From contig OY761159.2 of assembly GCA_963664395.2 (NCBI GenBank), positions 64,001 through 128,000 of the forward strand: a DNA stretch of 64,000 nt. Direction: 5' to 3'. Both the position numbers and the translations under genes were made by a program. Source of the stretch: Candidatus Binatia bacterium. GTDB lineage: Bacteria; Desulfobacterota; Binatia; Bin18. The notes under the pieces are model-generated. The model made no database searches, was not told the origin of the DNA, and saw only the letters and a list, made by a program, of their open reading frames with translations. Of this stretch, positions 37,847 to 52,555 are shown one piece after another. Positions within the stretch are counted from its first letter, which is position 1, and every line of letters begins with the position of its first letter.

Positions 37847-37920
37847 GGTCGCATAGCTCAGCTGGCTAGAGCGCTTGCTTCACATGCAAGAGGTCCGGTG
37901 TTCAAGTCACCGTGCGACCA
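37847..37920 (+). tRNA. tRNA-Val (anticodon CAC)
   Basis: Acceptor stem GGTCGCA/TGCGACC plus A, D-arm TAGCTCAGCTGGCTAGAGC, anticodon arm CTTGC-TTCACAT-GCAAG, T-loop TTCAAGT. CCA is not encoded. Confidence 0.95.
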
Positions 37921-38521: not shown

Positions 38522-40543
<2,022 letters not shown>

Positions 40544-40586
40544 TTACAAGCAGCATTGATGTACGATGGAAATGTTGAGACATCGT

Positions 40587-40685
40587 GCTCCCTTCGCTGG
40601 CATTACCCAGATCAGGTTCCAGGGGTCGATACACTGCACAACACAGTGCCTCCTCTCAGCCGAAAATCCAGCTCCCCCAACACCT
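40587..40685 (-). promoter_or_regulatory. TPP (THI-box) riboswitch
   Basis: Minus strand reads GGGGAGC..GGCTGAGA....GACCCCTGGAACCTGATCTGGGTAATGCCAGCGAAGGGA, upstream of thiC. Confidence 0.95.
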
Positions 40686-40784
40686 TAGGATCAATGTCGG
40701 ATTATGCTACGCCGCCCGTCTCGGGCTGTCAACGCAGGCTTACATTCCGAAGATGCAGGTGCTACGCCTGCCCCTCTATCCCTA

Positions 40785-42109: not shown

Positions 42110-42148
42110 GTGGGGCGACTGGTACTGTCGGCCGCCGAATTCGCCTGC
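42110..42148 (+). pseudogene. 3'-end remnant of a third LuxR-type gene
   Basis: gtggggcgactggtactgtcggccgccgaattcgcctgc (..RLVLSAAEFA) aligns with the ends of the two intact regulators (RLVLSVAVLA*, RRVLSVATFV*) and precedes the same box. Confidence 0.6.
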
Positions 42149-42166
42149 CCCGCTGCGGTGCGATTT

Positions 42167-42211
42167 TCCTATAATTTTATAGGAGACGGGGGGCACGGAA
42201 TTGGGTACAGG
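42167..42211 (+). promoter_or_regulatory. lux-box-like palindrome + promoter, copy 1
   Basis: TCCTATAATTTTATAGGA (42167-42184) overlapping GAGACG-17 bp-TACAGG. Confidence 0.7.
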
Positions 42212-42431
42212 GAGGGGGTGATTTGTGCGAACACGAGGAGTGAAGCGCTGACAGGCGCATGCAGGCCAGCCGTCCGGCTTTTCATAGACACCATACGGAG
42301 ACGCTGTCGCAGGGATACTCCGTTCGAGAGTGTCCTTTCTTTTCCTTTCCATACTCCATGAACTGTCTCCAAGAAACGGATTTCCATCATGACTGCACCC
42401 CACTGGAAAAACCGGACAAGGACGCACCGGC

Positions 42432-43568
42432 ATGAGTGACCAAGATGCACTCGAACGTATCCTGGCGGCGTTACATGACGCCATGCTCGACGATAGCCAG
42501 TGGCCGGCCACCTCAGCCCTGATCGATGAAGCCTGCGGGATGCAGGGCAATGCCCTGCTGGTCCGCAACGGCCCACAGGACAATGCCCGGGTCCTTTTCG
42601 TCGGGCTCTATTACCGGGGGGAGCGCCGCGAGGACTGGGAGCGCGAGTACCTCGGGGTCTACCACCCCATCGACGAACGCGTGCCGCGGCTGATGCAACT
42701 GCCCGACAGCCGCCTAGTGCGGATCGCCGACCTGTACACCGAACAGGAGTTGCAGACCTCGCTCGCCTACAACGAGGGATTGTCCCGGGGGAGTGCCCGG
42801 CAGGGCGTGAATGTGCGGCTGGACGGGCCGGACGGCTCCCACATCTCCTGGGTCACCGCCGACCCCGTCTCCCCGAACGGCTGGGCGTCCTCGCAGCTCG
42901 CGCTGCTCAAAGCGCTGCTGCCCCATATCCGGCAATTTGTCCGCATCCGGCAGGCGCTGGCCAAAGCCGAGGCGCTGGGCGCGTCCCTGACCGCCCTGCT
43001 CGGCACCTCTCGGATCGGGGTCATCTGCTTGGACCGGCGCGGGCGGGTCGTGGAGGCGAATGACCGTGCCCGTGCCATCCTGCGGCAGAGCGACGGGCTG
43101 ATGGACCGGGGCGGCGTGCTGGCCGCCCGCGTGCCGGCTGACCATGCCTGCCTGGAGCGGCTGGTCGCCGACGCGCTGCCGACCTCCAGTGCGCCCGCCG
43201 TCAGTGGGTCAATGCGGCTCCACCGCGCGTCCGTGCAGCCACCGTTCGTGGTGCACGTCAAACCTGTGGGTATCCGGCAGATGGACTTCGGGGCGCGGCG
43301 CGTAGCTGCCCTGGTGCTGCTTGTCGAGCCGGGGCAAGTGGCCCGCATCGATCCCGCCCTGGTGGCCGCGACCCTGGGGCTGACGCCGGTGGAGAGCGAG
43401 ATAGCGGCCTGGCTGGCGGAAGGCCGGACGGTCCGCGAGATTGCGGGGGCGAGGGGGCATACGACAGGCTCCGTCTATTGGTACCTGAATCAGATTTACC
43501 GCAAGCAGGGCATTGCCCGGCAGGCGGACTTGGTGCGGCTGGTGCTGTCGGTCGCCGTGCTCGCCTGA
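42432..43568 (+). CDS. LuxR-type HTH regulator with N-terminal sensor and PAS-like domains, copy 1
   Basis: C-terminal LTPVESEIAAWLAEGRTVREIA...IYRKQGIARQADLVRLV; PAS-like GVICLDRRGRVVEANDRA. Confidence 0.88.
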   Translation: MSDQDALERILAALHDAMLDDSQWPATSALIDEACGMQGNALLVRNGPQDNARVLFVGLYYRGERREDWEREYLGVYHPIDERVPRLMQLPDSRLVRIADLYTEQELQTSLAYNEGLSRGSARQGVNVRLDGPDGSHISWVTADPVSPNGWASSQLALLKALLPHIRQFVRIRQALAKAEALGASLTALLGTSRIGVICLDRRGRVVEANDRARAILRQSDGLMDRGGVLAARVPADHACLERLVADALPTSSAPAVSGSMRLHRASVQPPFVVHVKPVGIRQMDFGARRVAALVLLVEPGQVARIDPALVAATLGLTPVESEIAAWLAEGRTVREIAGARGHTTGSVYWYLNQIYRKQGIARQADLVRLVLSVAVLA

Positions 43569-43587
43569 CCTCCGGCTGGTGCGATTT

Positions 43588-43632
43588 TTCTATAATTTTA
43601 TAGGAGACGGGGCTGCGCCAGTGCCTTATAGA
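43588..43632 (+). promoter_or_regulatory. lux-box-like palindrome + promoter, copy 2
   Basis: TTCTATAATTTTATAGGA (43588-43605), GAGACG-17 bp-TATAGA. Confidence 0.7.
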
Positions 43633-43732
43633 ACCTTCTCTGGGCGTCGGTGACCGCAGATTCCACACCGACCGCCTTGCTACCGCCCGACAAGAGAGGA
43701 CGGAGAGGTGGCTGGAAGAGGAGGAAGGTCAC

Positions 43733-46700
43733 ATGTTCTTGACACACCTGTGGTGCATGGCAGCCGGACGACCCGCCCCTGTCCGTTCAGATTCTGTCGG
43801 TCCGGGTGCCCTGCGGCAGGCCGTTCGCCCAGGCGGACAGAATCTCGGCGCGGGTCCCGGCAGGTGGGCGCGCGCTCTTCTCTGCGCGAGTGTCCTGCTG
43901 CTCCTCGGCTGGCCCGTCCCCGGCAGCGCCCAGACGACCTGCACCTCGACTAGCACGGCCGTCAGCGGGTTCACCGGTACCTTGGATGCCTTGGTGACAG
44001 ACTGCACCACCTTGCTGGGGCTCAAGGACGAGCTGCGTGGCACGGCGACCCTGGACTGGGCAGAGACTCTCGCCATGTCCTCGTGGGACGGCATTACCGT
44101 CGCAGGAGCCCCACCGCGGGTGACCCGTCTGGTAGTCCCCAATAAGAGCCTCACCGGCGTCATCCCCGCAGCGTTGGGCGACCTCACGAACCTGGCAGAG
44201 TTAACGCTCAACGGGAATGAACTCACCGGCACCATCCCCGCGGAGTTGGGCAAGCTCACGGACCTGGCGACCTTAGGGCTCTACGAAAACCAACTCACCG
44301 GCACCATCCCCGACCGGTTGGGCGCCCTCACGAGCCTGACACAATTATACCTCCACGATAATGAACTCACCGGCGCCATCCCCGCGCAGTTGGGCGCCCT
44401 CATGAACCTGCAACACTTATGGCTCAAGGGGAATGCACTCACCGGCGCCATCCCCGCGGAGTTGGGCGCCCTCATGAACCTGGAACAATTAGACCTCACC
44501 GAAAACCAACTCAGCGGCACCATCCCCGCAGCGTTGGGCGGCCTCATGAACCTGCAACACTTACACCTCGGTTTCAACCAACTCAGCGGCACCATCCCCG
44601 CAGCGTTGGGCGGCCTCATGAACCTGCAATACTTATTGCTCCACGATAATCAACTCACCGGCACCATCCCCACGTGGTTGGGCGCCCTCACGAACCTGGA
44701 ACAATTATACCTCCGCGAGAATCAACTCAGTGGTTCCATCCCCGCAGCGTTGGGCGCCCTCATGAACCTGCAATACTTATGGCTCAACGATAATCAACTC
44801 ACCGGCACCATCCCCGCGCAGTTGGGCGACCTCACGAACCTGGAACAATTATACCTCCACAGGAATGACCTCAGCGGTGCCATCCCCGCGGAGTTGGGCG
44901 CCCTCACGCTCCTGAAAGTGTTATGGCTCAACGAGAATGACCTGACCGGCCCCATCCCTAATGAGTTACAAACTCTCGCCGCCATGGAAGACCTGGACTT
45001 TTCCTTCAATGACCTGAGCGGCCCCATCCCCACGTGGTGGGGCTCCCTTTCCAACCTGCAATACCTCTACCTGCGCTTCACCGGCCTCAGCGGCCCTATC
45101 CCCACCGGGTTGGGCACCCTCACGAACCTGGCAGAGTTACACCTCGCCGCAACGGACTGGACCGAGACGATTCCGCAGGCGTTACTGACTAAGCAGACGA
45201 ATGGCACCCTGAGTTTGTGGACCAATCGGCGGCCCACCCCCCCGGAGGCTGAAGCCCCGGAGGCCGTAGTGGGACATGCGTACCAGTACACGGTGCCCTT
45301 CAGTGACCGAGATCGCGACCCGCTCCTTTTCCGCGCCAGCCAAGCCGGCGCCGGCAGCGCCCTGCCGGGCTGGTTGGCCTTTGACGAGCCGACGGGCACC
45401 CTCAGTGGAACCCCGCCCCGAGTAGGAGAGCGGGTCGCGGTGCAAGTAACCGCCACCGATGAGGACATGTTGGCCGCTGGGGACCTCCCCTGCGACCCCG
45501 ACAGAGACGAGGCCGCTACTGAGATGAACCCTCCCCGGCTGTGCGCCACCGTCACCTTCGAGCTCACCGTTGTCGCGAATCAGCCGCCGGTCGCCCCGGA
45601 ATTGACAGCGATCCTTTTTGAGCCGGGGCCGCACGTGTATCCGGTGACCTTCGAGGACGAGGGGGAAGTGACCTTCCAGGTCGCGCCGGCCGCGGGGCAG
45701 GCGCTGCCTGAGTGGCTTGAGTGGAGACCGGAAAGCCCCGGCGGTTTTTTTCAGGAAACATTGTGGTTCTTTATAGACGACACGGCTGTCAACCCAGCGG
45801 GAGGCTCCTGTGTGGTGGTGACGGCCACCGACCAGGGCGGCCTCAGCGCGTCGGTCGTCTTCGCCGCTCTCCTTGCCGCCGACCAAGGCGAGAACCCCTG
45901 CTTGGGAGTAGTGCCACCACCGCCTGGTGGCGGTGACGGTGGTGACGGTGGTGACGGTGGTGGCGGTGGTGACCGGTGGTGGCGGTGGTGGCGGTGGTGG
46001 CGGTGGTGGCGGTGGTGGCGGTGGTGGCGGTGGTGGCGGTGGTGGCGGTGGTGGCGGCGGTGGCGGTGGTGGCGGTGGTGGCGGTGGTGGCGGTGGTGGC
46101 GGTGGTGGCGGTGGTGGTCTCAGCAGTGACGACCACGGTAACACGGCTGCCCAGGCGACCCCCGTCCCCCTGGACTCCACCCGCATGTCCTCCACGACCG
46201 GCCAGCTCAATCCGGCGACCGACGTAGATTACTTCACCGTGGCCGTGCCCTACGCCGGCGTCTTGGTCGTCGAGACGACCGGCTCGACCGCTACCGTAGG
46301 CACGATATGGCAAGACGGCGAGGAACTGGCGAGTGCGGAGAGTGGCGGGGCGGGGCAGAACTTCCGACTCAGCGTGCGGGTCCAGGCCGCGCCGGTGGTG
46401 ATTGCCGTGCAGGGCAATGGGCAGCAGACTGGGGCGTACACGCTCCAGACGACCCTCATCGTGGGGTATCTGGAGAATCCGGGGGCGGCGTCCTTTCAGA
46501 GCGGCATCGGCGTCCTCTCGGGCTGGGTGTGCGAGGCCGACGCCGTGGAGATTGCGTTGAACGGCGTGCGGCAGCGGGCCGCGTATGGGACGGAGCGGCT
46601 CGATACGGCAGACATCTGCGGCGACACGGACAACGGCTTTGGGCTGTTGTTCAACTGGAACCTGCTGGGCGAGGGGGAGCATGACGTGGTCGCGTTCGTG

Positions 46701-47318
46701 GATGGGGTGGAGTTGAGCCGGACGACGGTGACCGTCACCACGCTGGGCACGGAGTTTCTGCGGGATGTAGCGGGCGCATGTGCGGCCGAGGACTTCCCGA
46801 TGCTGGGCGAGACGGTGACGGTCGCGTGGCAACAGACACAGCAGAACTTTGTGCTTGCCCACGGCCCGGCCCCGACCGGGGAGAGTCGGGCCGGAGCGAT
46901 TGACGTGGGGTTTCTGGAGAATCCGGGGCCGAACTCGTTTCAGAGTGGCATCGGGGTGATTTCAGGCTGGGTGTGTACGGCCGACGAGGTCGAGGTCGCG
47001 ATTGGGGACACCGGGCGGCAGCTCGCTGCCTATGGGACGGAACGGGTAGACACGCTGGATGCGTGTGGCGATACGGACAACGGCTTTGGGTTGTTGTTCA
47101 ACTGGAACCTGTTGGGGGACGGCGAGCATGCGGTGGTCGCTTATGTGGACGGCGAAGAGTTAGGCCGGGCCACGGTGCGGGTGACGACGTTGGGCGTGGA
47201 GTTTCTACGGGGAGCCGAAGGGGAGTGTGTCGTTGAGGACTTCCCGGCTCTGGGGCGGACCGTTACGCTTGAATGGCAACAGAGTCTTCAGAACTTTGTG
47301 ATTACGGATGTGGAGTAG
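43733..47318 (+). CDS. secreted LRR + Ig (He_PIG-like) + poly-Gly + PPC-like + 2x 'LENP' domain protein, split by a +1 frameshift at ~45974
   Basis: ORFs 43733-46129 and 45927-47318 join into ~1194 aa if the extra C in GACCGGT (45973/45974) is removed. Extended signal peptide, ~15 24-aa LRRs, LPGWLAFD..TGTLSGTP, DDHGN..DVDYF. Confidence 0.8.
44119..45185 (+). repeat. 72-bp tandem LRR-coding repeats (~15 units)
   Basis: Consensus LxxLxLxxNxL(T/S)GxIPxxLGxLxN; DNA frame aactcaccggcaccatccccgc..gttgggcgccctca.gaacctg. Confidence 0.95.
45926..46118 (+). repeat. (GGCGGTGGT)n / (GACGGTGGT)n 9-mer microsatellite encoding poly-Gly
   Basis: Directly visible ~190-bp tract. Confidence 0.95.
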
Positions 47319-47322
47319 AAGA

Positions 47323-49173
47323 ATGGGAATTAAAATGTTGTTTACCATCTTGTTTGTTCTGGTCCTTTTCCTGGTTCCCCAGGCGGAAGCTCATGTCGGT
47401 AATCCTTGTTTGGCGTCTGAACATTTGGATGAATCCCATGAATTCTGTTTTATAACAGACGAAGAAGCGGTTGACGTGCCACCGATAACAGAAAAAGTAA
47501 AACCCGCCACCGACCACTTAGACAGTACACGACTTTATGATCAAGAAGGTGACGCGGACCATCGTCATAAAATTCGTGCTATTGGAGTTCCGGGCGAAAA
47601 CTATGACAAGACTCATTTAGAGGATGACGGTCTTGGTACTAGGATAGTTTCTATTCCGGTATTTGATAGGGACTTTAATTCTTCTACTGGGTCTCCAAGC
47701 CCCTGTTATGAAATCAATTCAGACAGACTCGGGACTTTCTATTCCTACACGCATCGAAGAAATCCTCATCCTTTTGCCGACGAGGGAATAACGTACCCGC
47801 CGCTTAATCCGCCACATAATGTGAGCGTCATAGCTGTAGGAGTAGAAATTAAGTGGGATGGTGGTGCAGGTCCAGGATTGGATTATGAGACCGCTTCTGT
47901 CGATGGTGATGGAAATCATTACTATGATTATACTATCACCGCGTGGGACGCAGTTGATGAGGGGCGATCCTGTGAGAACTCAGTAGACCCGGCATGGAAG
48001 TTATCGGAGACTTTTCGTTTATACGTCACTGACGTAGATGAAACGATAAATTATCCCCCGACATTTGATACTCAGATGGACCAAATGGCGGTGTTTGAGA
48101 ATGCCGATCCTGATGTAGAGATATGTTGTTCCATAGTTGATGTTTCTGACAGGGATACCGCGCCCGAGGACTTGGTATACTCGTTACGTGGTGACGACGC
48201 TGATTCTTTTAGAATCACTACCGGCGCTATGTATCCTTCTGGAAACGGTCAACCAAATGGATTTATCTTTGCGACACGAACGTTTGATTACGAGACGAAG
48301 AATAGGTATGAAGTGACGGCTCGTGTAGAAGACCCAGAAGGACTATTCCTTGAACGTAGTTTTACAATACATGTCGTAGACGTAGTGAACGAAGGGTGCG
48401 GTCCTCCTCATTTCCCTGGAAATGGAATTAGTCCATTTGATGTACGGGTTCATTTAAGTAATACAGATTCAAATGGAAACATACGCTCGTATGATGATGG
48501 TAATTGTACTGTGGAGCCCCCGCCAGTAGAAGAGGAAGTAGAAAATACTCCTCCTCCAACAACTGGTAGAACTTCTCCTCCTCTGGTGAGTAATCCTCCT
48601 TCTTCTAGTAATTCAGATGGAGGTGGTGGTGGTGGATCCGGGGGTAATTCAGGCGGTGGAGGCGGAGGGTCCAGTAGTAGTTCAGGAAATGGAAATTCTT
48701 CTTTAACAAATACGACCCCTAACTCTGACGAGGAAACTCAACTGGGACCGGAATCGCCCGTTTATTCTCTGGAGAATCCGGGACCGAATTCCTTTCAAAG
48801 TGGAGTGGGACTCATATCCGGTTGGGTATGTGACGCCGAGGTTGTCGAGATCGAGTTGAATGGTGCGCCGCAGGAGGCGGCGTATGGCACGCTTCGGTCC
48901 GACACGGAAGCTGTCTGTGGCGATATCGACAACGGCTTTGGTCTCTTATTCAACTGGAATCTGTTGGGGGATGGAGAGCATACTATTGTCGCGTTTTCTG
49001 ACGGAGAAGAGTTCGGACGGACTACCTTCACTGTCACTACCCTGGGTCAAGAATTTGTGAGTGACGTTCCCGAAAGGACCGTAACTATTGAAGACTGGCC
49101 AGGATCGGGTGAAACGGTCACGCTTGAATGGCAACAGAGTCTTCAGAACTTTGTGATTACGGATATGGAGTAG
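47323..49173 (+). CDS. secreted cadherin-like protein with Pro/Gly/Ser linker and C-terminal 'LENP' domain
   Basis: Signal peptide (..VPQAEA), LDYET, VTDVDE, FDYETKNRYEVTARVEDPEG, VVDV cadherin motifs; AT-richer than the flanks. Confidence 0.82.
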   Translation: MGIKMLFTILFVLVLFLVPQAEAHVGNPCLASEHLDESHEFCFITDEEAVDVPPITEKVKPATDHLDSTRLYDQEGDADHRHKIRAIGVPGENYDKTHLEDDGLGTRIVSIPVFDRDFNSSTGSPSPCYEINSDRLGTFYSYTHRRNPHPFADEGITYPPLNPPHNVSVIAVGVEIKWDGGAGPGLDYETASVDGDGNHYYDYTITAWDAVDEGRSCENSVDPAWKLSETFRLYVTDVDETINYPPTFDTQMDQMAVFENADPDVEICCSIVDVSDRDTAPEDLVYSLRGDDADSFRITTGAMYPSGNGQPNGFIFATRTFDYETKNRYEVTARVEDPEGLFLERSFTIHVVDVVNEGCGPPHFPGNGISPFDVRVHLSNTDSNGNIRSYDDGNCTVEPPPVEEEVENTPPPTTGRTSPPLVSNPPSSSNSDGGGGGGSGGNSGGGGGGSSSSSGNGNSSLTNTTPNSDEETQLGPESPVYSLENPGPNSFQSGVGLISGWVCDAEVVEIELNGAPQEAAYGTLRSDTEAVCGDIDNGFGLLFNWNLLGDGEHTIVAFSDGEEFGRTTFTVTTLGQEFVSDVPERTVTIEDWPGSGETVTLEWQQSLQNFVITDME

Positions 49174-49177
49174 AAGA

Positions 49178-49820
49178 ATGGGAATTAAAATGTTCTTCAT
49201 TGTTTTCTTAATGATCGTATCTTTTTTGACGCCCTAAGCAGAAGCTCATGTCGGCAACCCCTGTTTGGAGGCGGATTACGCCGATGAAAGTCATACTTGT
49301 TACATAACCGAAGAGGAGAGTTTAGCCGGGGTAACAGACACAGCAGAACTTTGTGCGTGCCCACGGCCCGGCCCCGACCGGGGAGAGTCGGGTCGGGGTG
49401 CCCGGCGTCGGCACGCTGGAGAATCCGGGGCCGAACTCGTTTCAGAGTGGCATTGGGGTGATCTCGGGCTGGGTGTGTGCGGCCGACGAGGTCAAGGTCG
49501 CGATTGGGGACACCGGGCGGCAGCTCGCTGCCTATGGGACGGAGCGGGTGGATACGCTGGATGCGCGTGGCGATACGGACAACGGCTTTGGGTTGTTGTT
49601 CAACTGGAACCTGTTGGGCGAGGGCGAGCATGAGGTAGTCGCCTTTGTGGACGGCGAAGAGTTAGGCCGGGCCACGGTGCAAGTGACGACGCTGGGCGTG
49701 GAGTTTCTACGGGGGGTTGAAGGGGAGTGTACGGTCAAGGACTTCCCGGCTCTGGGGCAGACGGTCACGTTGGAGTGGCAACAGAATAGTCAGAACTTTG
49801 TGATTACGGCCGTGGAGTAG
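49178..49820 (+). pseudogene. chimeric pseudogene: N-terminus of a cadherin-gene paralogue fused to a 'LENP' C-terminus
   Basis: MGIKMFFIVFLMIVSFLTP*AEAHVGNPCLEADYADESHTCYITEEE (stop at 49235) is joined at ~49333 to a copy of 46831-47318. The domain Cys is changed (DARGD). Confidence 0.8.
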
Positions 49821-50327
49821 GGGACCGACCCGCCCCCTTGATACCTATATCATTCCCGAAAGGGAGGAGCACGTTTATGGCCCGTGGATTATCTGTACCG
49901 GCAAGAGATCGTCACCTGGCAGACCGTCTTGTGCAAGCGCTCCTGCCCCTCATCGAGGAACGCTTGGCCCACAAATTTGCGGCCTTTGAGCAGAGAATCG
50001 ATGAGCAGGTGCAAGCAGGTGAGAAGCGCAGGGGTCCTCGGTTCGAGGTCTTTTCCGATCTGTACTACCCCCATAGTCAAAGCGGTACACTTTGCTCGGG
50101 CCTTTGGTACACTTTCGCCCCTCACTGGTACAAATAGAAAGAGGAATGTCGATGAGTAAGCCTGACCGCCTATCGATAATCAGGAGAACGACCTGTTTAG
50201 TAGAGAGAGGCCGACTCAGTGGCAATGGACTACTGGGTGGTCGCGTCCGACGCTACAATCTCCGTTCTTCTCGGTACAGGACTCTACCCGGTAAGCAACT
50301 CAGTAGACGACGGCCGCTTGCCTGGCT

Positions 50328-50408
50328 CAAATACGCCGCCCACTGATCCACGAGTGTACGCCAGCGCTCAAATAAGTCTGAGCGCGCATAGGCCGCTTCT
50401 ACCTTGTT
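50328..50408 (-). mobile_element. C-terminal remnant of a P4-type tyrosine integrase
   Basis: Manual translation NKVEAAYARSDLFERWRTLVDQWAAYL, the typical catalytic-Tyr tail of P4-like integrases. Confidence 0.7.
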
Positions 50409-50601
50409 TGTTTAATATAGAGGGGAACATCTCGGACCTGCTGAGACCTGCTATCCCAACAAGAGGGATAGACTATCCAGGAACTTCTCTTGTGAAGGGC
50501 TGAAGGCATATGGGGGCGCTTCGTCCGAGAATATCCCTTCTTTTCCTGTCCATACTCCATGACTGCACCCCACTGGAAAAACCGGACAAGGACGCACCGG
50601 C

Positions 50602-51738
50602 ATGAGTGACCAAGATGCACTCGAACGTATCCTGGCGGCGTTACATGACGCCATGCTCGACGATAGCCAGTGGCCGGCCACCTCAGCCCTGATCGATGAA
50701 GCCTGCGGGATGCAGGGCAATGCCCTGCTGGTCCGCAACGGCCCACAGGACAATGCCCGGGTCCTTTTCGTCGGGCTCTATTACCGGGGGGAGCGCCGCG
50801 AGGACTGGGAGCGCGAGTACCTTGAGGTCTACCACTCCCTGGACGAAAGCGTGCCGCGTTTCCGGCAACTGTCCGACAGCCGCGTGGTGCACGTCACCAA
50901 CCTGTACACCGCCGAGGAGTTAAGGACCTCGCCCGCCTATAACGAAGGGTTCGCTCGGGCCAGCATGCAGGATGGCGTGAAGGTGCGTCTGGACGGGCCG
51001 GACGGTTCCCATATCGCCTGGGCGACCGCCGACCCCGTCTCCCCGAACGGTTGGGAGTCCTCGCATCTCACGCTGCTCAAAGCGCTGCTGCCTCACATCC
51101 GGCAATTTGTCCGGGTCCGGCAGACGCTGGTCAAAGCCGAGGCGTTGGGCGCGTCCGTGACCGCCCTGCTCGACACCCCTCGGGTCGGCGTCATCCATCT
51201 GGACCGGGACGGGCGGGTCGTGGAGGCGAATGACCGGGCCCGCGTCCTCCTGCGGCACGGCGATGGGCTGTCGGACCGGGACGGGGTACTGTCCACCCGC
51301 GTGCCGGCCGACCGGGCCCGCCTGGAGCGGCTGGTGGCCGCCGCGCTGCCGACCTCCCGCGCCCCCGCCGTCAGTGGGTCGATGCTGCTCCACCGGACGT
51401 CCACGCTGCCGCCGTTCGTGGTGCACGTCAAACCCGTGCGTGTCCGGCAGCTGGACTTTGGGGCGCGGTACGTCGAGGCGCTAGTGCTGATTACCGAGTC
51501 AGGGTACGTGCCCCGCATCGATCCCGCTCTGGTGGCCAAGACCCTGGGGCTGACGCCAGTGGAGAGCCAGATGGCGGTCTGGTTGGCGGAAGGCCAGACC
51601 GTGCGCGAGATTGCCGGGGCGACGGGGCGCACGGCCGGCTCCGTCTATTGGCACCTGAATCATATCTACCGCAAGCAGGGCCTCTCCCGGCAGGCGGACT
51701 TGGTACGGCGGGTGCTGTCGGTGGCTACGTTCGTCTGA
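50602..51738 (+). CDS. LuxR-type HTH regulator, copy 2
   Basis: 378-aa paralogue of 42432-43568 with identical N-terminal ~74 aa and the same HTH pattern. Confidence 0.88.
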   Translation: MSDQDALERILAALHDAMLDDSQWPATSALIDEACGMQGNALLVRNGPQDNARVLFVGLYYRGERREDWEREYLEVYHSLDESVPRFRQLSDSRVVHVTNLYTAEELRTSPAYNEGFARASMQDGVKVRLDGPDGSHIAWATADPVSPNGWESSHLTLLKALLPHIRQFVRVRQTLVKAEALGASVTALLDTPRVGVIHLDRDGRVVEANDRARVLLRHGDGLSDRDGVLSTRVPADRARLERLVAAALPTSRAPAVSGSMLLHRTSTLPPFVVHVKPVRVRQLDFGARYVEALVLITESGYVPRIDPALVAKTLGLTPVESQMAVWLAEGQTVREIAGATGRTAGSVYWHLNHIYRKQGLSRQADLVRRVLSVATFV

Positions 51739-51757
51739 CCCCCGGGCGGGGGAATTT

Positions 51758-51802
51758 TTCTATAATTTTATAGGCGACAGGGGCCGCGGAATTGCGTATA
51801 GG
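51758..51802 (+). promoter_or_regulatory. lux-box-like palindrome + promoter, copy 3
   Basis: TTCTATAATTTTATAGGC (51758-51775), GCGACA-17 bp-TATAGG. Confidence 0.7.
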
Positions 51803-51940
51803 AACCTTTCCTCAGACGCCGGCGGGCGGAGAGGTGGTAGGAAGAGGAGAAGCCTCACATGTTCTTAACCAGCCTGTGGTGCACGGCCGCATTACAAGGT
51901 GGGACGGCCTTGGCCGTCGCCGGCGCGGAAGGCGGAGGGC

Positions 51941-52555
51941 GTGACGACCCGACTCTCGAACGCTGAACGCTCTCACCGGACCCGGCGCGCCCTGCTTGAC
52001 GTGGGTCGGGCGTTGTTTGCCGACGTGGGCTATGCCCGCACCACGACGGAAGAGCTTGTCCGGCGGGCGGGCGTGACCCGCGGGGCGTTGTACTATCACT
52101 TTCCCGACAAAACCGCGCTCTTCGAAGCCGTGTTTGAGGAAGTCCACCAGGAATGCCTCCAAGCGATGAGCACAGGCATGGAGACGGCTGAGGGCGACCC
52201 GTGGGAACGGTTTATGGCGAGTCTGCGGGTGTTGATTGCACAGCTTGGACGCCCGGACGTCCAGCGTATTGTCGTTGATGGTCCGGCGATCCGGGGTTGG
52301 TCCAGCACACGACAGGGGCCGCTGGGTCCGCAGAGCCTGCGTGCCGTTTGTGAGCAGTTGGTCGCCGAGGGGGTGATTACACCCCTGCCACTCGATCCCC
52401 TGTGCCGCCTGGTGTGGACGGCCTGCTCCGAGGCGGCGCTCCACATTGCCCAGCCCGAGACGAGCGGTGGGGACCAGCAGGAAATGATCGCCACGCTGAT
52501 GTGTCTGCTCGGCAGACTGCGGTGCAAGCAGGAGGCTGGGGACAGGCAGGAGTGA
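51941..52555 (+). CDS. TetR/AcrR family regulator
   Basis: TRRALL..GRALFA..GYA.TTTEELVRRAGVTRGALYYHF.DK.ALF. GTG start after GGAGGG. Confidence 0.92.
   Translation: MTTRLSNAERSHRTRRALLDVGRALFADVGYARTTTEELVRRAGVTRGALYYHFPDKTALFEAVFEEVHQECLQAMSTGMETAEGDPWERFMASLRVLIAQLGRPDVQRIVVDGPAIRGWSSTRQGPLGPQSLRAVCEQLVAEGVITPLPLDPLCRLVWTACSEAALHIAQPETSGGDQQEMIATLMCLLGRLRCKQEAGDRQE

Follow-up and report, generated by a model that had tools for sequence, protein, structure and literature searches.

Organization of the LuxR Island

The DNA analyzed in this study (hereafter the window, meaning the whole stretch of 64,000 nucleotides from contig OY761159.2 of Candidatus Binatia bacterium) carries, between positions 42110 and 52555, an island with two genes for LuxR-type regulators, LuxR-1 and LuxR-2, and three copies of a short palindromic box. 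Each box is followed by a predicted promoter, and the genes behind these promoters encode LuxR-1 itself, a putative surface protein, and a TetR-family regulator. The features of the island are given below, with the boxes registered as 16-mers (a 16-bp dyad) and with E-values of the promoter-frame hidden Markov model (HMM) described in the section on the genome-wide family; ORF stands for open reading frame and HTH for helix-turn-helix.

42110..42148, + strand, LuxR 3'-end remnant of 39 nt, stop codon mutated to TGC; aligned with both intact 3' ends and below the reach of blastn at E 1e-3
42168..42183, + strand, box 1 (CCTATAATTTTATAGG), predicted operator of LuxR-1 (autoregulation); promoter-frame HMM E 1e-8
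42183..42211, + strand, predicted weak sigma-70 promoter 1: GAGACG at 42183-42188, 17-nt spacer, TACAGG at 42206-42211; expected start ~42218
42389..42439, + strand, upstream ORF of 16 codons (MTAPHWKNRTRTHRHE), with a copy at 50559..50609; its TGA stop overlaps the LuxR start region
42432..43568, + strand, LuxR-1, 378 aa, recognition helix GSVYWYLNQIYRK; predicted ligand-binding domain 1-181, PAS 184-301, HTH 313-376
43589..43604, + strand, box 2 (TCTATAATTTTATAGG), 20 nt past the LuxR-1 stop; predicted operator of the cargo promoter
43604..43632, + strand, predicted promoter 2: GAGACG, 17-nt spacer, TATAGA at 43627-43632
43733..46129, + strand, cargo gene, 798 aa, LRR_8 (2.7e-41) and Ig-like He_PIG (2.3e-10); hydrophobic, signal-like N-terminus
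45927..47318, + strand (as the cargo gene), ORF with no Pfam match
47308..49173, + strand (as the cargo gene), ORF with a weak cadherin match
50602..51738, + strand, LuxR-2, 378 aa, 80% identical to LuxR-1, recognition helix GSVYWHLNHIYRK
51739..51758, + strand, terminator-like hairpin CCCCCGGGCGGGGG followed by AATTTTT, the tail being the T-run before box 3
51759..51774, + strand, box 3 (TCTATAATTTTATAGG), 20 nt past the LuxR-2 stop; top promoter-frame match of the genome, E 4e-11
51774..51802, + strand, predicted promoter 3: GCGACA, 17-nt spacer, TATAGG at 51797-51802
51826..51890, + strand, remnant of a cargo gene, with leader and initial codons (ATG at 51859, MFLTSLWC...); homologous to 43699-43765
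51899..52555, + strand, TetR-family regulator, TetR_N and TetR_C_41

A preliminary description of this DNA had proposed a unit, repeated three times, in which the end of a LuxR gene is followed by a box, and this unit was recovered: the pattern CTATAANNTTATAG, with at most one mismatch, matches the window at 42169, 43590, and 51760 only, and none of 100 dinucleotide shuffles of the window yielded a match. The motif CTATAATTTTATAG is present in three copies in the window, where 0 would be expected, with no further copy in the 5.04 Mb genome. The three perfect box copies found in the whole genome (5,036,955 bases) are all inside the island, in agreement with the proposal that the regulon of this box type is confined to it. 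Each copy of CTATAATTTTATAG has the end of a LuxR gene upstream and a TAnnnn -10-like hexamer 22 nt downstream. The details of the proposed geometry hold as well: alignment identified two intact LuxR ends and the 39-bp remnant at 42110, the gap of about 20 bp between LuxR end and box was found at boxes 2 and 3, and at all three copies a poor -35-like hexamer overlaps the box by sharing its last base and lies 17 bp before a -10-like hexamer. Between copies, identity reaches 15-16/16 in the box, compared with 9-17/22 in the spacer to the -10 and 17-32/44 upstream (ungapped), so that the box is kept better than the surrounding duplicated DNA, the opposite of which had been named as a reason to abandon the proposal. 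The cargo described from the sequence was likewise recovered with Pfam (LRR and He_PIG, a weak cadherin match, and TetR), and the two ORFs behind the 798-aa gene (45927-47318 and 47308-49173) probably belong to its transcription unit. Since no box was found in the 320 nt upstream of LuxR-2, positive feedback is predicted for LuxR-1 only.

Domain Architecture of the Regulators

The Pfam profile GerE (PF00196) matched LuxR-2 with 24.9 bits (cut-off 23.5), and PAS_8 gave a weak match in both LuxR proteins (E 1e-3). Reading of both proteins confirmed the recognition-helix strings GSVYWYLNQIY and GSVYWHLNHIY given in the preliminary description. The structure of LuxR-1 was modeled with AlphaFold (AF2) from a 36-row alignment, giving a predicted local distance difference test score (pLDDT) of 86.8. 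Whole-chain TM-scores in Foldseek were low, because the chain holds three domains, and the domain-wise VIA search was informative. Residues 1-181 matched CepR2 (Z 14.6; root-mean-square deviation, rmsd, 2.9; 163 aligned residues), LasR (14.5), CviR (12.9), TraR (12.3), and QscR and RhlR (12-13), with generic GAF domains at about 10-11. Residues 184-301 have a PAS fold (Z 9.7 to the PAS domains of SrrB and TraJ), and residues 313-376 form an HTH that matched the C-terminal domain (CTD) of DosR (Z 10.8, rmsd 1.3), NarL in complex with DNA (10.2), and GerE (9.3). In addition, residues 184-375 superpose on VqmA (7dwm) with Z 9.7, and this phage VqmA is the sole solved relative of the HTH region detected by sequence (E 0.0097).

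In the model, the regulator is thus composed of a LasR/CepR2-like domain, a PAS domain, and a NarL-type HTH. The N-terminal domain, which had been suggested for modeling in search of a ligand pocket, carries the autoinducer-binding fold, with CepR2 as its best match. The label of a classical LuxR protein, by contrast, does not suit a protein of 378 aa in which a PAS domain stands between the ligand-binding domain and the HTH, and which departs from the two-domain architecture of about 240 aa of acyl-homoserine lactone (AHL) receptors. Residues Tyr73, Asp81, Trp140, and Trp151 are kept in the family, as read from the alignment. The profile of LuxI (PF00765) had no match in the genome (95.9% complete), in a search whose control was positive in 0 of 14 control genomes.

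A symmetric homodimer was predicted for the regulator (0.69, compared with 0.01 for the best control), with at least 82% of contacts shared among three runs and a partner pLDDT of at least 84. Among proteins of known structure, 20 of 30 solved as pairs reached this mark, as did 1 of 23 solved as single chains; since solved dimers of the LuxR family exist, the result may partly reflect likeness to known structures. In the model, the invariant LPHxRQFVR helix and the last HTH helix take part in the interface.

A Genome-Wide Family of Regulators and Boxes

The genome encodes seven full-length LuxR paralogues (69-100% identity) and one broken copy, and every paralogue has a palindrome of like build upstream and/or downstream, with arms that differ between paralogues. 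The arms are CTATA in the window and CTATC at two islands located at 2.80-2.82 Mb and 3.25-3.28 Mb, while CCTCC and CCCCC arms are also found. A class-wise scan revealed many more boxes than regulators, all placed in one promoter frame consisting of an A/T-rich run, the 16-bp box, (n)GACA, a G-rich spacer with ..GGAAT.., and a TA -10. The island of the window, which had been regarded as self-contained, is better described as a small and recent branch of a genome-wide family that also crosses phyla.

The promoter-frame HMM, built from 32 hand-registered sites, detected 50 sites in the genome at E<=0.017, including 31 of the 32 seeds, and the next match had an E of 1.2. Positions A7, T8, T10, and G16 are kept in 49-50 of these sites, G18 in 48, and C20 in 42. 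The box centre reads ATTT in 43 of the 50, in one orientation relative to the downstream gene, and the TA begins 22 or 23 nt past the box in 41. This fixed distance would place the centre of the dyad near -42.5 if the TAnnnn hexamer is the -10. A scan with the sigma-70 consensus (9 of 12) found no strong promoter at the boxes, which fits activator dependence. Arm complementarity in the 22 distinct boxes was 0.72, compared with 0.55 +/- 0.04 when right arms were shuffled, and none of 2000 shuffles equaled the observed value. Two metatranscriptome runs were matched, with only 6% of the sampled words in them.

About 40 of the 50 boxes do not lie behind a LuxR gene. Remnants of LuxR 3' ends, 48-60 nt long, were found with blastn before three further genomic boxes, the remnant before box 1 having been recognized by eye. 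The idea that most boxes follow such a remnant was ruled out, as blastn found only these three apart from the boxes directly behind intact or broken LuxR genes. It is very unlikely that the palindrome is an RNA terminator or stability hairpin, or functionless DNA that is merely the least-diverged part of a duplication. Its place 20 nt past two stop codons would suit such an origin, and compensatory changes in the arms would preserve an RNA stem too. However, the T-run is found 5' and not 3' of the palindrome, box 3 has a distinct GC hairpin with a T tail in front of it, and the boxes, mostly away from LuxR genes, precede the predicted -10 and would therefore not be transcribed with the cargo. 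An RNA stem would also not account for the asymmetry of the CCTCC class, for mismatches with no G-U bias (TG 14, CA 9, CT 11), or for a centre that keeps its orientation relative to the promoter, and neither role nor lack of function fits a box far better kept than its flanks.

As a separate observation, about ten boxes of the type CTACCAATTTTGGTAG or CTACTAATTTTGGTAG have near-identical flanks over more than 60 nt, and this type does not flank any of the paralogues in the genome. They may represent a recently spread promoter cassette and are located as follows:

G000:C1, ~1150181, 1193440, 1287293, 1756143, 3381022
G000:C1, ~3395344, 3425970, 3454004, 4330639; C14:13237

Covariation of Box Arms and Recognition Helix

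Boxes and regulators were compared for 94 distinct homologues from the genome, the genus, and 79 loci of named metagenome-assembled genomes (MAGs). Two positions of the recognition helix, occupied by Tyr349 and Asn353 in LuxR-1, covary with the arms of the neighboring box:

Tyr/Asn, CTATA arms: 3/3, from two genomes, with L050 in a MAG titled Binatota
Arg/His, CTATC arms: 11/11, including L055, with imperfect boxes found by the HMM only
His/Gln or His/Arg, CCGTA arms: 8/9
Lys at the second position, C-rich arms CCTCC, CCCCC, CTACC: loci titled Binatia, Alphaproteobacteria, Defluviicoccus, Vicinamibacterales, Nitrospira

From a hand alignment to the NarL helix string, we take these two positions to be Lys188 and Lys192 of NarL. 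This match agrees with the ranges paired by VIA (313-376 to 151-215). NarL Lys188, Val189, and Lys192 make base-specific contacts, as reported in the available part of PMC10853779.

Trees were built from residues 1-300, and so without the HTH, in a quick IQ-TREE run. Locus L050 (Tyr/Asn, CTATA) nests in the clade of Arg/His regulators with CTATC boxes (SH-aLRT, the Shimodaira-Hasegawa-like approximate likelihood ratio test, 97), and its C-terminal 40 residues are like those of LuxR-1 and unlike those of its N-terminal kin. A single Tyr/Asn clade is rejected by the approximately unbiased (AU) test (p 5e-5), for a group named post hoc on a tree already seen. This contrast indicates that helix and box are not tied by common descent alone. 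Either the HTH end and the box moved as a module or the pair arose twice, and both possibilities tie the helix to the box. About 60-100 nt separate the helix codons from the stop, which the box follows at 20 nt, so that the specificity pair spans only about 130 bp. With respect to the portable cassettes of the preliminary description, the L050 tree suggests that HTH end and box move together. L050 (WTHE01000043.1) also has an in-frame TAG in the region of the last HTH helix, at ~1390 in the locus, indicating a pseudogene or a sequencing error.

Palindromes of this size could in principle be read by another factor, as operators of TetR proteins are typically short palindromes, in which case the box would merely travel with the LuxR gene. 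The TetR gene of the window, listed as cargo in the preliminary description, is no accidental companion, as a TetR of the TetR_C_41 type follows LuxR and box in four relatives as well (L043, L046, L048, and L059, out of 36 relatives whose downstream genes were compared). This conserved pairing is what a TetR reader would have in its favor. Against it, the TetR recognition helix GVTRGALYYHF is identical in CTATA-class and CTATC-class loci, whereas the LuxR helix differs at two base-contact positions, which argues that the neighboring TetR does not read the box. Moreover, there are about 50 boxes in at least five classes, and TetR genes stand by only some of the LuxR genes in the loci read, making a reader other than the LuxR protein highly improbable. 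The covariation supports the prediction, made at the level of sequence, that the adjacent regulator has its cognate operator in the box.

Genes Located Downstream of the Boxes

Cargo was assigned by a crude rule, taking the longest ORF that starts within 520 nt downstream of a site, and the 40 resulting ORFs other than LuxR were compared with Pfam. Adhesion or eukaryote-like domains or extracellular enzymes were found in 23 of the 40, other domains (YcjX-like, PPDK_N) in two, and no Pfam match in 15. The adhesion and repeat domains comprise fn3, cadherin, LRR, Calx-beta, PPC, CARDB, SWM, Glug, LapA, and PKD, and the enzymes a sulfatase, two arylsulfotransferases, GH97, a subtilase, a reprolysin-like M12B protease, and a matrixin. 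The N-termini of the ORFs downstream of boxes are mostly signal-peptide-like.

The reverse comparison started from all genomic matches to LRR_8, fn3, and Cadherin, merged into 29 gene-level clusters. For 26 of these, a box on the same strand is present at most 13 kb upstream, compared with 5.2% of 20,000 random positions, so that the enrichment of boxes upstream of LRR and cadherin genes that the preliminary description led one to expect was present for LRR, fn3, and cadherin clusters. Of the three clusters that depart from this, one is a fragmented LRR region, one a 2113-aa gene with a degenerate CTATC-like box in front, and one an fn3 gene. The fragmented region (G000:C1:686595-687551), which is broken by TGA stops and is the sole LRR locus with no upstream box, is probably a decaying gene.

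A group of small ORFs of 191-210 aa, 70-84% identical to each other, with a signal-like N-terminus, the motif AADLFTPV, and no Pfam match, was also observed between a box and a giant cadherin gene (1600-2600 aa) at three places:

G000:C1, 784308-784916
G000:C1, 1912208-1912783
G000:C1, 3259612-3260244

The motif AADLFTPV also opens the reprolysin-like protease at G000:C1 1753284-1755653.

Distribution across Genomes and Phyla

Among the 28 genomes of the genus, at least two CTATC 14-mers (at most one mismatch) were found in nine (2-13 each), and all nine have an Arg/His-class LuxR beside the boxes (seven read directly, two matched to named loci). The other 19 genomes have no CTATC 14-mer (12 genomes) or one (seven), the LuxR copies of eight being only partly read; the 11 genomes of the genus with no LuxR homologue have 0-1 CTATC boxes. 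Perfect CTATA boxes in the genus are restricted to the genome of the window, with one-mismatch matches elsewhere at about control level. From these sequences, the CTATA class seems to have branched recently from the CTATC class, with a change of one bp per half-site together with Arg to Tyr and His to Asn. In the same genus, the 14-mer CTATAATTTTATCG was found once each in G001, G006, G007, G012, G014, G016, G018, G047, and G048, and is probably a conserved unrelated site.

The protein collection searched contains more than 3370 family members at E<=1e-3, and relatives occur in MAGs labeled with at least eight phyla. The related loci fall under the following titles:

Binatia/Binatota: 61-73% identity
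Vicinamibacterales/Acidobacteria: 61-67% identity
Other titles: Thermodesulfobacteriota; Tectimicrobiota/Entotheonella; Alpha- and Gammaproteobacteria; Spirochaetia; Bryobacterales; Nitrospira

Several of these loci sit on multi-megabase chromosomes. The sequences from Acidobacteria group in a supported clade inside those of Binatia, which points to lateral transfer. Applied to the 79 related loci, the promoter-frame HMM found 22 sites, all within L043-L082 (Binatia/Binatota titles, with L044 titled Thermodesulfobacteriota), and none in the loci titled Acidobacteria, Proteobacteria, Spirochaetia, or Nitrospira, where only bare palindromes were seen. The downstream genes in other phyla are mixed (LysR, enolase, hydantoinase, POR, and others), so that a common cargo is unsupported there. 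The large regulon is so far a feature of Binatia. The bin-name series of several relatives presumably stem from sponge microbiome studies. Sponge-associated Binatota (UBP10) are on record in the available parts of PMC9999580, PMC8262859, and PMC8163846.

The wide presence of the family also bears on whether box and promoter could be the end of a mobile or recombining cassette and not a regulatory site. The unit is multi-copy and reshuffled, with LuxR 3' remnants before four boxes and a cargo-leader remnant after box 3, it is found across phyla, and an IS240-type transposase adjoins one relative (L060). However, no consistently linked recombinase, target duplications, or terminal repeats were seen in the loci scanned, and neither the fixed spacing to the -10 nor the covariation with the helix would be expected of a recombination site, leaving such an origin with very little probability.

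Proposed Mechanism

The box is probably the operator of the regulator beside it, and the regulator an activator. Under this proposal, a ligand-gated regulator would form a symmetric dimer on its private box, with the two recognition helices reading the 5-6-bp arms of the 16-bp dyad and the invariant A/T centre (ATTT) lying outside the reach of the variable residues. The dyad centre would be located about 42.5 bp upstream of a predicted weak sigma-70 start, over a poor -35, a placement from which the regulator on its box would act as a class II activator and bring in RNA polymerase, as LuxR does at the lux box and NarL at yeaR. The CTATA class (Tyr349, Asn353) would have exactly three targets, all in the window: LuxR-1 itself (feedback), the operon of the LRR/Ig/cadherin surface proteins, and the TetR regulator. 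Other paralogues, with arms CTATC, CCTCC, CTACC, and CCCCC, would together drive about 50 promoters, which front most of the adhesin, eukaryote-like-repeat, and matrix-enzyme genes. Almost every adhesin and eukaryote-like surface-protein gene of this bacterium thus seems to be under the control of the regulator family. While the sequence anatomy, the covariation, the co-occurrence across genomes, the fold, and a dimer model that passes its controls come directly from the analysis, we infer that the regulator binds DNA and activates, where transcription starts, and that a ligand is required.

Several observations weigh against the activator-operator proposal. The position of the dyad depends on taking the TAnnnn hexamer as the -10. 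Generic 6-4-6 palindromes with an A/T centre showed no enrichment genome-wide (88 versus 83 mirror controls), box searches being informative only when class-specific or frame-based. The code between helix and box is not one-to-one, as about 22 CCTCC-type and 10 CTACC-type boxes have no Arg/Lys paralogue and could be served only by the Tyr/Lys pair P5/P6 and by His/Lys P7. With regard to the protein, LuxR-1 scores 23.2 bits with GerE, just below the cut-off, and neither LuxR-1 nor LuxR-2 matches Autoind_bind (PF03472) at E<=0.01. Under the strict palindrome definition, only 48 of the 94 distinct homologues have a box within -320/+250, and some of these 48 resemble GC hairpins that arose by chance. 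A box is lacking from most loci of Vicinamibacterales and from many of Proteobacteria, and a pattern search in five genomes of other phyla found 0-4 CCTCCCATTTGGGAGG boxes each. Since regulator and box are neighbors and most rows are kin, the covariation may be largely co-inheritance; independent contrasts are few, with essentially one clear switch (L050 versus L004/L005), in the group named post hoc.

The same holds for the overlap of the box with a -35-like hexamer, which fits repression as well as activation, the two being indistinguishable in the sequence data. A regulator that covers the -35 until its ligand releases it would follow the precedent of EsaR/ExpR-type LuxR proteins, which act as repressors released by ligand. 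Such repression is nonetheless considered unlikely at the boxes, where the -35 hexamers (GAGACG, GCGACA) are poor and the -10 hexamers (TACAGG, TATAGG) weak, whereas promoters that work with no activator are usually better. In addition, a centre near -42.5 is the classical activating position in the available part of PMC3376562.

Beyond the activation of single promoters, a wider role can be proposed only tentatively, and as a whole it is rather doubtful: a horizontally shared, three-domain LuxR family would serve as a master switch of host interaction in uncultured, probably sponge-associated bacteria of several phyla, with private operators and a ligand that is a cue from the host or the community. 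The genes under its control would include adhesins, LRR, ankyrin, and cadherin proteins, sulfatases, sulfotransferases, and matrix proteases. Two helix residues would define the private operator of each paralogue, and since a stretch of about 130 bp holds both helix codons and operator, the pair could be copied or swapped by short-patch recombination. Such swapping would yield insulated sets of regulator and operator, of which the Tyr/Asn and CTATA pair of the window would be a freshly born example.

Comparison with Known Systems

The AHL receptors LuxR, TraR, LasR, and CepR2 have the same ligand-binding fold, HTH, and dimer as the model of the window regulator, and the same box placement, over the -35 with a centre at about -42.5, is predicted here. 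They differ in being about 240 aa long as opposed to 378, as the window regulator has an inserted PAS domain and no sequence match to Autoind_bind. The lux box is a 20-bp inverted repeat centred at -42.5 in the available part of PMC3376562, compared with a 16-bp box with an invariant ATTT centre here, and, unlike AHL receptors, the present family has seven paralogues with separate box classes in one genome. VqmA, the receptor of 3,5-dimethylpyrazin-2-ol (DPO), also combines PAS with a LuxR-type HTH, at an identity of about 18%, but it has no N-terminal LasR-like domain.

For NarL, the accessible text of PMC10853779 describes a dimer centred at -43.5 that activates yeaR, with the CTD of the RNA polymerase alpha subunit (alpha-CTD) bound in the A/T minor groove between the NarL monomers. 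An alpha-CTD in the A/T groove between two monomers would also explain the invariant ATTT centre of the boxes. As far as that text goes, NarL shares the HTH fold (Z 10.2), and its base-contact positions are those that vary with box class here; however, NarL is a phosphorylated response regulator and not a ligand-binding receptor, and its site differs in sequence from the boxes.

The closest concept in print, as far as the accessible part of PMC4235431 shows, is that of the PAS4-LuxR solos of Photorhabdus, an expanded set of receptors lacking a synthase, in an animal-associated bacterium, for which host sensing has been proposed. A PAS-type sensing domain is common to both groups. In the Photorhabdus proteins described there, PAS4 replaces the AHL-type domain, whereas the window regulator has both in one chain; the present family also belongs to an unrelated lineage (Binatia and other uncultured phyla), with operators and regulons that can be read from sequence.

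According to the available part of PMC8163846, no genomic hallmark of sponge symbionts is better known than their cadherins, fibronectin-type adhesins, and eukaryote-like repeat proteins, which these symbionts exchange laterally; 'LuxR' and words in 'regulat-' are absent from that text. In the literature searched, no regulator or promoter motif was reported for the eukaryote-like protein genes of sponge symbionts, nor was the LuxR architecture of the window reported in these symbionts. LuxR-type class II regulation is known, and what is new here is the domain order of the LuxR family (AHL-type domain, PAS, HTH), the predicted family of private operators, and the predicted host-interaction regulon. 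If the proposal is true, the expression of nearly all adhesin and repeat proteins of one bacterium would be predictable from sequence, with 26 of 29 clusters behind a box, and the regulon of an uncultured organism could be tested by binding and reporter assays in E. coli. The regulators and operators would further form a natural series of close pairs that differ by one bp per half-site and two residues, useful for studying the birth of specificities and for building insulated genetic circuits.

Neighboring Genes and Other Features of the Window

The upstream ORF of 16 codons before both LuxR genes is kept, with synonymous and non-synonymous changes, in the CTATA/CTATC clade only, and it may couple or gate translation of the regulator. 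From about -43 to about +210 (42389-42642 and 50559-50812), LuxR-1 and LuxR-2 are 100% identical, and about 80% identical beyond. This identity of the 5' part suggests recent gene conversion, the alternative being an assembly artefact. A perfect inverted repeat, GGATAGACTATCC, lies at 50466-50478, 136 nt upstream of LuxR-2, in the position that a box takes in other paralogues, and its half-sites are reversed in order relative to the CTATC box.

Just past the predicted start of the cargo transcript, a possible leader hairpin (GTCGGTG...CACCGAC, 43646-43672) was seen by eye, and its words recur in the cargo leaders of the CTATC class elsewhere in the genome. An Rfam scan of the window matched a tRNA and a thiamine pyrophosphate (TPP) riboswitch only, with no match at boxes or leaders. 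The tRNA is located at 37847-37920, and the TPP riboswitch (40573-40688, - strand, 61.6 bits) lies directly upstream of thiC (38522-40540, - strand, ThiC_Rad_SAM), an ordinary arrangement.

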